From assembly GCF_003334335.1 (NCBI RefSeq), contig NZ_QOWQ01000118.1: a DNA stretch of 1,221 nucleotides. One strand, 5' to 3'. The translations under genes and the position numbers were made by a program. The notes under the pieces are model-generated. The model saw only the letters and a program-made list of their open reading frames with translations, was not told where the DNA came from and did not search any database. This document shows, in pieces, positions 1-1,221 of the stretch. Positions within the stretch are counted from its first letter, which is position 1. Every line of letters starts with the position of its first letter. This DNA comes from Escherichia coli (GTDB lineage: Bacteria; Pseudomonadota; Gammaproteobacteria; Enterobacterales; Enterobacteriaceae).

Positions 1-26
1 TGTAGATTCAATCTGTCAATGCAACA
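1..26. repeat. Terminal inverted repeat (IRR with respect to the transposase orientation), 26 bp
   Basis: Window 1-26, TGTAGATTCAATCTGTCAATGCAACA, matches the reverse complement of 1196-1221 at 23 of 26 positions (mismatches at repeat positions 13, 14 and 20). Similarity stops at position 27. Confidence 0.9.
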
Positions 27-1159
27 CCCCTTTCAATTATCTCTTTCGGTGTTTTGAACTTCAGTGTCTTTCTCGGTCTGTTGTTTAGCTGAGCAGCAAC
101 CAGATCTAGTTCATGTTGAGTATATTGGGCAAGACATGTCTTTTTAGGAAAGTACTGCCGAATTAGCCCATTTGTGTTCTCATTTGTTCCCCGCTGCCAA
201 GGACTCTGAGGATCGCAGAAGTAAACTTTAACGCCGGTGCTGACAGTAAATTCTAGATGTCTGGCCAGTTCCATTCCTCTGTCCCATGTCAGTGATTTTC
301 TGAGTTCTGACGGTAAACTCAGGAATTTGTCGGTAAGAGCCTGATTTACTGAGACAGAATCTTTGCCCCTGAGTCTAAGGATGATCGTATAACGTGATTT
401 TCGGTCTACAAGTGTGGCTATATGAGAGTTTTTTGTACCTGAGACTAAATCGCCCTCCCAATGCCCCAGAGAGCGTCTGTTATCGATATTTCGGGAACGT
501 TCGTGAATTGGTGTTCCGTTCACTATGTTAATCGTACCTCTTTCGCCTTTGCGGGTATGACGCCTGCCATGGCGAAGGCTATGCGACCGTCGCAGATGCT
601 GTATATTCAGGTGGTGTAGCGCTTCACGGCTACGAAAGTACAGCGTTTTATAAATTGTCTCAGGTGATATTCGCAGCGTTTTTTGACGTGGTTTTGTTCG
701 CCTTAACCATCCTGATATTTGCTCTGGAGACCATTTCATCTCCAGCTTTTCCAGAACAAGCTTTCGCAATGGTAAATTTTGATCCAGTAAGCACGGTTTT
801 GGCCTTTTCGCCATTCTGTTGGCTCGGTTATTAGCATCAACAGCTTTGTAATAGCGTCTGCCCCGATTACGCTGAACTTCACGTGAGATCGTCGAAGGAC
901 TGCGATTCAGCGCAGTAGCTATCGCACGAATGCTCATTTTGGCTGACAAACCAGCTCGTATCTCCTCGCGCTCAGACAGTGTCAGGTGAGCTACAGCCCG
1001 CTTACGCTCATGGGGTTTTATGCCGCCAGTATCCCTTAACATAGTGAAGATCGTTCCGGGTTTTGAACCCAGGATATTCGCTATTTCACTGAAGCCTGTT
1101 CCGTTCTTCCATAGTTCAAAAACAGAGGCTTTTTCCTCTGCTGTAAATGTTCGTCTCAT
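8..1159 (-). CDS. insI: IS30-family DDE transposase, 383 aa (InsI-like)
   Basis: Single uninterrupted ORF from ATG (reverse complement of 1157-1159) to TGA (reverse complement of 8-10). A GGAGG ribosome-binding site lies 8 nt upstream. The catalytic residues read directly from the translation are D237 in HWEGD (codon 449-451), D293 in LTWDRG (codon 281-283) and E327 in GTNENT (codon 179-181), giving D(55)D(33)E spacing, which is the IS30-family signature. The N-terminal third has helix-turn-helix-like segments. I assign insI from recognising the protein as E. coli IS30 transposase; this is recall, not an alignment. Confidence 0.95.
   Translation of the reverse strand: MRRTFTAEEKASVFELWKNGTGFSEIANILGSKPGTIFTMLRDTGGIKPHERKRAVAHLTLSEREEIRAGLSAKMSIRAIATALNRSPSTISREVQRNRGRRYYKAVDANNRANRMAKRPKPCLLDQNLPLRKLVLEKLEMKWSPEQISGWLRRTKPRQKTLRISPETIYKTLYFRSREALHHLNIQHLRRSHSLRHGRRHTRKGERGTINIVNGTPIHERSRNIDNRRSLGHWEGDLVSGTKNSHIATLVDRKSRYTIILRLRGKDSVSVNQALTDKFLSLPSELRKSLTWDRGMELARHLEFTVSTGVKVYFCDPQSPWQRGTNENTNGLIRQYFPKKTCLAQYTQHELDLVAAQLNNRPRKTLKFKTPKEIIERGVALTD
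14..19 (-). promoter_or_regulatory. Outward-facing consensus -35 hexamer (TTGACA) inside the terminal repeat
   Basis: Plus-strand TGTCAA at 14-19 is TTGACA on the minus strand, reading toward and out of the element terminus, with 13 bp between the hexamer and the end. No matching -10 exists inside the element, so any promoter would need a -10 supplied by flanking DNA or by an abutting repeat. Confidence 0.5.
155..472 (-). other. DDE (RNase H-fold) catalytic core of the transposase, about residues 230-335
   Basis: Contains the three acidic residues D237, D293 and E327 with 55 and 33 intervening residues, in conserved local contexts (HWEGD, TWDRG, TNENT). Boundaries are approximate. Confidence 0.7.
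860..1159 (-). other. N-terminal DNA-binding region of the transposase (about residues 1-100, two helix-turn-helix-like segments)
   Basis: Translation shows HTH-like stretches (…EKASVFELWKNGTGFSEIANILGSKPGTIF… and …LSAKMSIRAIATALNRSPSTISREVQRN…). Established knowledge: IS30-family transposases carry N-terminal HTH motifs that recognise the terminal repeats. Boundaries are approximate and not profile-verified. Confidence 0.6.
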
Positions 1160-1187: not shown

Positions 1188-1215
1188 CACATAACTGTTG
1201 CGTTGACCAATTGAA
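1188..1215 (-). promoter_or_regulatory. Putative weak native transposase promoter overlapping the inverted repeat
   Basis: Inference: only poor sigma70-like hexamers are present in the 62 nt between the terminus and the ATG, for example TTCAAT then a 16-bp spacer then TATGTG on the minus strand. This fits the generally weak expression of IS transposases. Exact boxes are uncertain and no transcription start site can be read from sequence. Confidence 0.25.
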
Positions 1216-1221
1216 TCTACA
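1196..1221. repeat. Terminal inverted repeat (IRL with respect to the transposase orientation), 26 bp
   Basis: The reverse complement of 1196-1221 is TGTAGATTCAATTGGTCAACGCAACA, matching 1-26 at 23 of 26 positions. It lies 36 nt upstream of the transposase start codon on the minus strand. Confidence 0.9.

Follow-up and report, generated by a model that had tools for sequence, protein, structure and literature searches.

Introduction

IS30 encodes, in one long ORF, a ∼44-kDa transposase whose catalytic domain is of the DDE (rve) type and is preceded by an N-terminal HTH. (IS30)2 dimers and minicircles are said to have been studied by the Olasz/Kiss laboratory. Circular and tandem-dimer intermediates with abutted ends are established for this element (PMC9333248, PMC9330008), and the joined ends lie 2 bp apart (PMC9333248). 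In statements that credit or cite Dalrymple 1987 (Mol Gen Genet 207:413), a 2022 study of the IS30 transposition network describes the IRL-IRR junction of dimers as forming "a strong Pjunc promoter" and takes this promoter to explain the extreme instability of junction-bearing strains; Pjunc is further described as directional, with high transposase production from ORF-A of the downstream copy (PMC9333248). Dalrymple 1987 is also the source given, in several later accounts, for fusion promoters that combine the −35 hexamer of the IS30 right repeat (IRR) with a −10 in flanking DNA (PMC9330008, PMC7780238, PMC11894529, PMC8764528). As relayed from Stalder 1990, an N-terminal transposase fragment protects bp 9 to 35 of the IS30 ends (PMC7780238; PMC3299598).

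Transient junction promoters place IS30 in a group with IS911, IS2, IS21, and IS256 (PMC9330008, PMC7780238, PMC11894529). In IS911 and IS2, members of the IS3 family, an outward −35 in the right repeat and an inward −10 in the left repeat are assembled only at the junction, as in IS30, and the strong promoter that transiently results supplies the reactive intermediate with transposase (PMC9330008). The systems differ in detail: the IS911 spacer is 3 to 4 bp rather than the 2 bp of IS30, and transposase is a frameshifted OrfAB product in IS3-family elements, whereas IS30 encodes it in a single ORF. The same split-promoter logic is found in IS256/ISCth4 and in IS21. In ISCth4, the right repeat carries TTTACA as the −35 and the left repeat TAAAAT as the −10 (PMC7780238); these hexamers reportedly fall outside the base-specific contacts of the transposase, while the IS30 −35 lies inside the bp 9 to 35 footprint. 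Here, we compare with these systems a stretch of Escherichia coli DNA, referred to below as the window (1,221 bp in full), in which an earlier note had pointed out an outward-reading −35 hexamer at one end.

Results

The window is a complete IS30

The window is IS30 of E. coli, complete and presented antisense, and it is 100% identical across 1,221 bp to RefSeq copies annotated as "IS30-like element IS30 family transposase." Of 5,426 complete E. coli genomes, 3,825 contain an IS30 match, and 30 of the 32 distinct full copies that we recovered are 1,221 bp long. The terminal inverted repeats are 26 nt long and imperfect, with 23 of 26 positions complementary (88%). The right repeat, at the 3′ end of the transposase gene, occupies window positions 1 to 26 (TGTAGATTCAATCTGTCAATGCAACA) and is assigned from the inverted repeat and the RefSeq identity; the left repeat (IRL), upstream of the transposase gene, occupies 1196 to 1221. 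Between them, the minus strand carries transposase ORF-A (8 to 1159, 383 amino acids) with HTH_38 and rve/DDE domains; the record of the identical protein lists PF13936 (HTH_38) and PF00665 (rve). Its stop codon (10 to 8) falls inside the right repeat. A GGAGG ribosome-binding site, read from the sequence, is located on the minus strand at 1168 to 1172, 8 nt upstream of the transposase ATG; counted along the element, GGAGG occupies positions 50 to 54 and the ATG begins at position 63.

Identical 2-bp flanks, the expected target duplication, surround 18 of the 32 distinct full copies. Length and identity, 26-bp imperfect repeats, a single HTH+DDE transposase ORF, and a 2-bp target duplication thus all identify the element as IS30. 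The other 14 copies lack matching 2-bp flanks and are chimeric: their left and right flanks derive from different targets, often IS3-family elements (loci L006 to L150), which implies later and frequent recombination or rearrangement between IS30 copies.

Inside the element, the transposase ORF contains a perfect 13-nt inverted repeat, at 519 to 531 and 1036 to 1048 (TTCACTATGTTAA and TTAACATAGTGAA), whose arms are 504 nt apart; by a rough estimate, ∼0.01 such pairs would be expected by chance in 1,221 bp. Positions 510 to 523 (GGTGTTCCGTTCAC) share 11 of 14 bases with the right-repeat core (window 15 to 28) read in reverse complement. Adjacent to GGTGTTCCGTTCAC is one copy of a perfect 10-nt direct repeat, TGTTCCGTTC, found at 512 to 521 and 1097 to 1106. 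The site at 510 to 523 may be an internal repeat-like site or a chance resemblance.

Abutted ends assemble a promoter-like array

The window contains a single TTGACA, both strands counted, on the minus strand at 19 to 14, which corresponds to repeat positions 14 to 19. These coordinates bear out the description in the earlier note of an outward-reading hexamer that is separated by 13 bp from the end of the element on the 3′ side of the transposase gene. The intervening 13 nt (1 to 13, minus strand) read GATTGAATCTACA. The left repeat carries TAGATT at positions 3 to 8 (window 1214 to 1219, minus strand), which reads inward and matches TATAAT at four of six bases, A2 and T6 among them; a properly placed extended −10 TG is absent.

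We built the junction in silico as IRR + NN + IRL, with a 2-bp spacer. Together, the 13 nucleotides of GATTGAATCTACA, the NN spacer, and the TG with which the left repeat begins make up 17 bp, within the 16- to 18-bp range across abutted ends with the natural spacer, so that the junction reads TTGACA, a 17-nt spacer, and TAGATT, followed by GGAGG and the transposase ATG. In a Pjunc-type promoter, the right repeat contributes an outward −35 and the left repeat contributes an inward −10 ahead of the transposase start; both hexamers are present here. The predicted start lies upstream of GGAGG, and the junction transcript would thus carry the ribosome-binding site. This construct has exactly the layout proposed from the window alone, with a 2-bp spacer, a 17-bp spacing, and TAGATT in the −10 role, and a natural fossil junction with a 2-bp spacer, described below, agrees with it; the proposal that such a promoter would drive the downstream transposase matches the published Pjunc (PMC9333248). 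The assignment of TTGACA and TAGATT to Pjunc is our deduction from the sequence and the published 2-bp spacing; promoter activity and directionality are taken from the literature, as conveyed by papers citing Dalrymple 1987.

A lone TTGACA is unremarkable, with 0.65 copies expected by chance in 1,221 bp when both strands are counted. Its placement is less readily obtained: the probability that a given strand of a 26-bp repeat contains one is ∼0.006, and 0.66% of arm shuffles gave a junction that scored 10/12 or better and had A2 and T6 in its −10. None of the 2,290 internal 76-nt windows of IS30 reached 9/12. A promoter/terminator scan of the linear window found no σ70-like site by the criteria of the tool, as expected of a promoter that exists only across the junction.

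The opposite end is a weaker counterpart. The outward hexamer of the left repeat, TTGACC, matches the −35 consensus at five of six bases and lies at 1203 to 1208 on the plus strand, one base away from the 1204 to 1209 given earlier. The earlier note traced this weaker hexamer to repeat mismatches at positions 13 and 14. Both mismatches are real, but a third, at position 20, had been missed, and only position 14 (T in the right repeat, G in the left) is part of the hexamer; position 13 opens the spacer, and position 20 immediately precedes the hexamer. The right repeat in turn carries TAGATT at 3 to 8 on the plus strand, a potential −10 for a junction promoter in the reverse direction. That arrangement, TTGACC-17-TAGATT, scores 9/12, one base weaker than the forward one. 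The functional asymmetry of the two ends claimed in the note thus holds for the hexamers (6/6 versus 5/6), yet it amounts to one base, and with a 5/6 hexamer in the left repeat the directionality of the junction promoter, as judged from the sequence, would not be absolute.

Natural junctions are limited to one fossil

The earlier note had proposed looking for tandem or abutted IS30 copies. We searched with a 303-nt synthetic junction and, in metagenome and viral contigs, with the exact junction pattern. Neither the 20,395 E. coli records (5,426 genomes) nor the 72,556 plasmids contained an intact head-to-tail IS30 junction, and the exact pattern had no match in the metagenome or viral contigs; the search yielded one fossil only. 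The absence of intact junctions is expected of an unstable, transient intermediate.

The fossil is located on Shigella dysenteriae ATCC 12039 plasmid NZ_CP026830.1 (∼148,935 to 149,021; L150, 1620 to 1664). There, the right end of a full IS30 is followed by "AC," by IRL nucleotides 1 to 14 (TGTAGATTCAATTG), and then by an IS2 end. The "AC" spacer is the same 2 bp that flank the left end of that IS30 copy, from which we infer that one end was transferred just outside the other. In the fossil, TTGACA-17-TAGATT is intact and faces into IS2 from its right end, in antisense orientation relative to the IS2 transposase gene. This junction is unique among the 72,556 plasmids and absent from the 5,426 E. 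coli genomes; a second IS30 copy was looked for beyond the IS2 and is not there.

Two other kinds of match were rejected. A junction-covering match on E. coli 042 plasmid pAA (NC_017627.1; L001, 1501 to 2056; hits H21 and H111) is not a tandem junction, its ends being in the normal orientation. It is an internally deleted, 556-bp IS30 inside an IS3-family transposase gene, with both terminal repeats intact, and represents a potential nonautonomous, MITE-like IS30 remnant. Hits H22 to H27, which appeared to hold 10 nt of the right-end terminus before a left end, reflect chance flank similarity (...ctgaatttcaacag|TGTAG and ...ttgaatataacgat|TGTAG).

Hybrid promoters with natural flanks are rare

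The earlier note had also suggested that the outward hexamer could form hybrid promoters that activate neighboring host genes and that the flank should be inspected for a suitable −10. The window itself has no flank, and we therefore surveyed 134 IS30 right ends with flanks, representing 35 distinct target types, accepting as a −10 any hexamer with at least 4/6 matches, A2 and T6 included, at 16 to 18 bp from the −35. An acceptable −10 was found in 2 of the 35 distinct natural targets: TATTTT at 17 bp (L053/L075; target sequence GCCGTATTTTTT) and CAGAAT at 18 bp (L103; AGTTGCAGAAT). The remaining targets have none at this distance. Hybrid promoters are documented for IS30 in the literature, but a flank that permits one is the exception. 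IS30 prefers G and C at flank positions 4 and 5 (24/35 and 23/35 targets) and T-T at positions 10 and 11, and the G-C falls inside the −10 window; this preference explains why natural hybrid promoters are rare. The common targets do contain A/T-rich sequences that resemble a −10 (TTTAAT and TAATAT), but at 21 to 25 bp from the −35 these are too distant.

The commonest targets of IS30 are other insertion sequences, not host promoters. Most often, the element sits inside IS3-family elements between orfA (HTH_Tnp_1) and orfB (rve), and an A-rich stretch (A AAA AAG) resembling a programmed −1 frameshift heptamer lies a few base pairs upstream of the insertion point. Both orientations occur at this target, which is near-palindromic (AA..GC..|..GC..TT). 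In L007, L010, L013, L021, and others, the arrangement is ...ATATTAAAAAAAGCAAC | IS30 | ACCGCGTATTTTGCACAGG...; a second type, in L003 and L014, has GTAGCCTTTTTTAATAT. L053 (6960 to 7000, minus strand) and L075 hold a diverged IS30 isoform, with subterminal AATAGAAG versus TTGAAAGGGG, that retains the full 26-nt right repeat with TTGACA and forms, with the TATTTT of its flank, one of the two candidate hybrid promoters.

A search of genome contigs for the exact right repeat returned four loci only, all in metagenome-assembled genomes of unlikely hosts. These contigs (L002 to L005) were binned to Planctomycetales, Collinsella, Spongiibacteraceae, and Oceanospirillaceae, and misbinned enterobacterial contigs or contamination seem a more likely explanation than true hosts.

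The strategy recurs in the family without positional conservation

Diverged IS30-family elements were taken from plasmids, their repeats were located, and junctions were rebuilt with a 2-bp spacer; ends were set by repeat detection and carry an uncertainty of ∼2 bp. ISPsy38, ISAs2, and an E. faecium element, for which repeats were not confidently found, were left out. IS30 itself (transposase identity, 100%) scores 10/12 with TTGACA-17-TAGATT, and an IS30-like element on a Klebsiella pneumoniae plasmid (95%) has the same junction and score; although the terminal 34 nt carry other substitutions, IRR still has TTGACA and IRL still has TTGACC in this relative. Scores of 6/12 were obtained for the Burkholderia RPE67 element (49%; TCGACC-17-CGGATT), ISCfr4 (47%; CTCACA-17-TCGATG), and IS1394 (about 41%; CTGCAA-17-AAAACT). 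ISRme10 (about 40%; TTGAAA-17-AATGAA) reaches 8/12, ISLpl1 (about 29%; TTGCAA-17-TAAAAT) 9/12, and ISApl1 (about 38%; TTGACA-17-TGCAAT) 10/12, the last with a −10 that lacks A2.

The 47 to 49% relatives keep a GTC(A/G)A core at the homologous position and have no consensus promoter, so the IS30 hexamer could be partly a by-product of the conserved, transposase-binding repeat core, which it overlaps. The outward TTGACA in the right end of ISApl1 lies 7 bp from the terminus, compared with 13 bp in IS30, and is not positionally homologous. An ISAba125-like element has an outward, −35-like TTGAAT; ISAba125, also of the IS30 family, supplies this −35 to resistance genes (PMC9330008). We considered the Pjunc arrangement as a conserved family character and rejected it, since it is not positionally conserved and the 47 to 49% relatives score 6/12. 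Judging by these sequences, the split-promoter strategy appears to be recurrent in the IS30 family, with positions that are not conserved.

Discussion

We are confident that the window is IS30 and that the TTGACA of its right repeat provides the −35 of Pjunc, a promoter that is split and normally silent. The element and the feature are those of Dalrymple 1987, with no difference in substance; the junction promoter was described at that time, and the observation made from the window is correct but ordinary. The additions beyond known biology are modest: a measured rarity of natural hybrid promoters and a single junction fossil.

Three other explanations of the hexamer deserve consideration. That it is a chance TTGACA with no function is scarcely credible: a sequence of this size is expected to hold 0.65 copies and the scan of the linear window is empty, in line with this explanation, yet the combined placement (in the repeat, outward, with a −10 at 17 bp across a 2-bp junction, upstream of the transposase start) has a probability of <0.01 and coincides with an experimentally described promoter (PMC9333248). 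We consider it very improbable, too, that the hexamer is present only as a transposase-binding site, its −35 match being incidental and without transcriptional consequence. The protected region at bp 9 to 35, as relayed from Stalder 1990 (PMC7780238; PMC3299598), does cover repeat positions 14 to 19, and the GTCAA/GTCGA core (repeat positions 15 to 19) occurs in both IS30 repeats and in the 47 to 49% relatives that lack a consensus −35. Against this stand the published strong, directional junction promoter with phenotypic consequences (PMC9333248), a T at position 14 that is specific to the right repeat and whose difference from the left-repeat G is kept in the 95% relative, and a matching −10 at exactly 17 bp, which is improbable by chance. 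Transposase binding and promoter function of the hexamer are compatible rather than exclusive.

The remaining explanation, that the main role of the hexamer is to form hybrid promoters with host −10 boxes and so to activate neighbors, seems to us quite unlikely. The right-repeat −35 of IS30 is cited as forming fusion promoters (PMC9330008, PMC11894529, PMC8764528), and two natural targets offer an acceptable −10. However, 33 of the 35 do not at 16 to 18 bp, G and C being preferred within that window, and the common targets are other insertion sequences with −10-like motifs too far away. Hybrid promoters are therefore best regarded as an occasional by-product, not as a selected function of the hexamer.

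The reading that we prefer, in which TTGACA is one half of Pjunc, suggests the following cycle. In an integrated single IS30, the −35 faces the host sequence and the matching −10 lies at the opposite end of the element, at a distance of 1.2 kb, and for this reason the transposase gene depends on a weak resident promoter. During copy-out-paste-in transposition, the right and left ends are first joined via a 2-bp spacer, in a minicircle or a head-to-tail (IS30)2, and this joining brings TTGACA and TAGATT to the optimal 17-bp distance directly upstream of the transposase ribosome-binding site and ATG. A burst of transposase would then occur exactly while the reactive junction exists, and integration would split the promoter again. 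TTGACA falls inside the bp 9 to 35 region attributed to Stalder 1990, where transposase binds the repeat; the bound protein therefore probably occludes the −35, which would amount to negative feedback. Occasionally, the same −35 and a host −10 would form a hybrid promoter as a side effect, an uncommon one because of the target preference.

A further reading joins two of our observations, and we think it unlikely. It holds that the reverse promoter of the near-palindromic junction, TTGACC-17-TAGATT, would fire antisense into the transposase 3′ end, and that the target consensus would provide "insulation," the G-C at flank positions 4 and 5 systematically blocking the outward −35 from firing into host DNA, with the hexamer kept purely for Pjunc. 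If true, the reverse promoter would give dimers and circles a bidirectional, self-limiting control of the reactive intermediate.

For IS30 itself, Pjunc accounts both for hyperreactive, unstable dimers and minicircles and for quiet integrated copies. Since a −10 at the right distance from its outward −35 is very rare in natural insertions, IS30 should activate neighboring genes poorly compared with IS1, IS2, or ISAba125, a consideration that is relevant when IS30 insertions upstream of resistance or virulence genes are interpreted.
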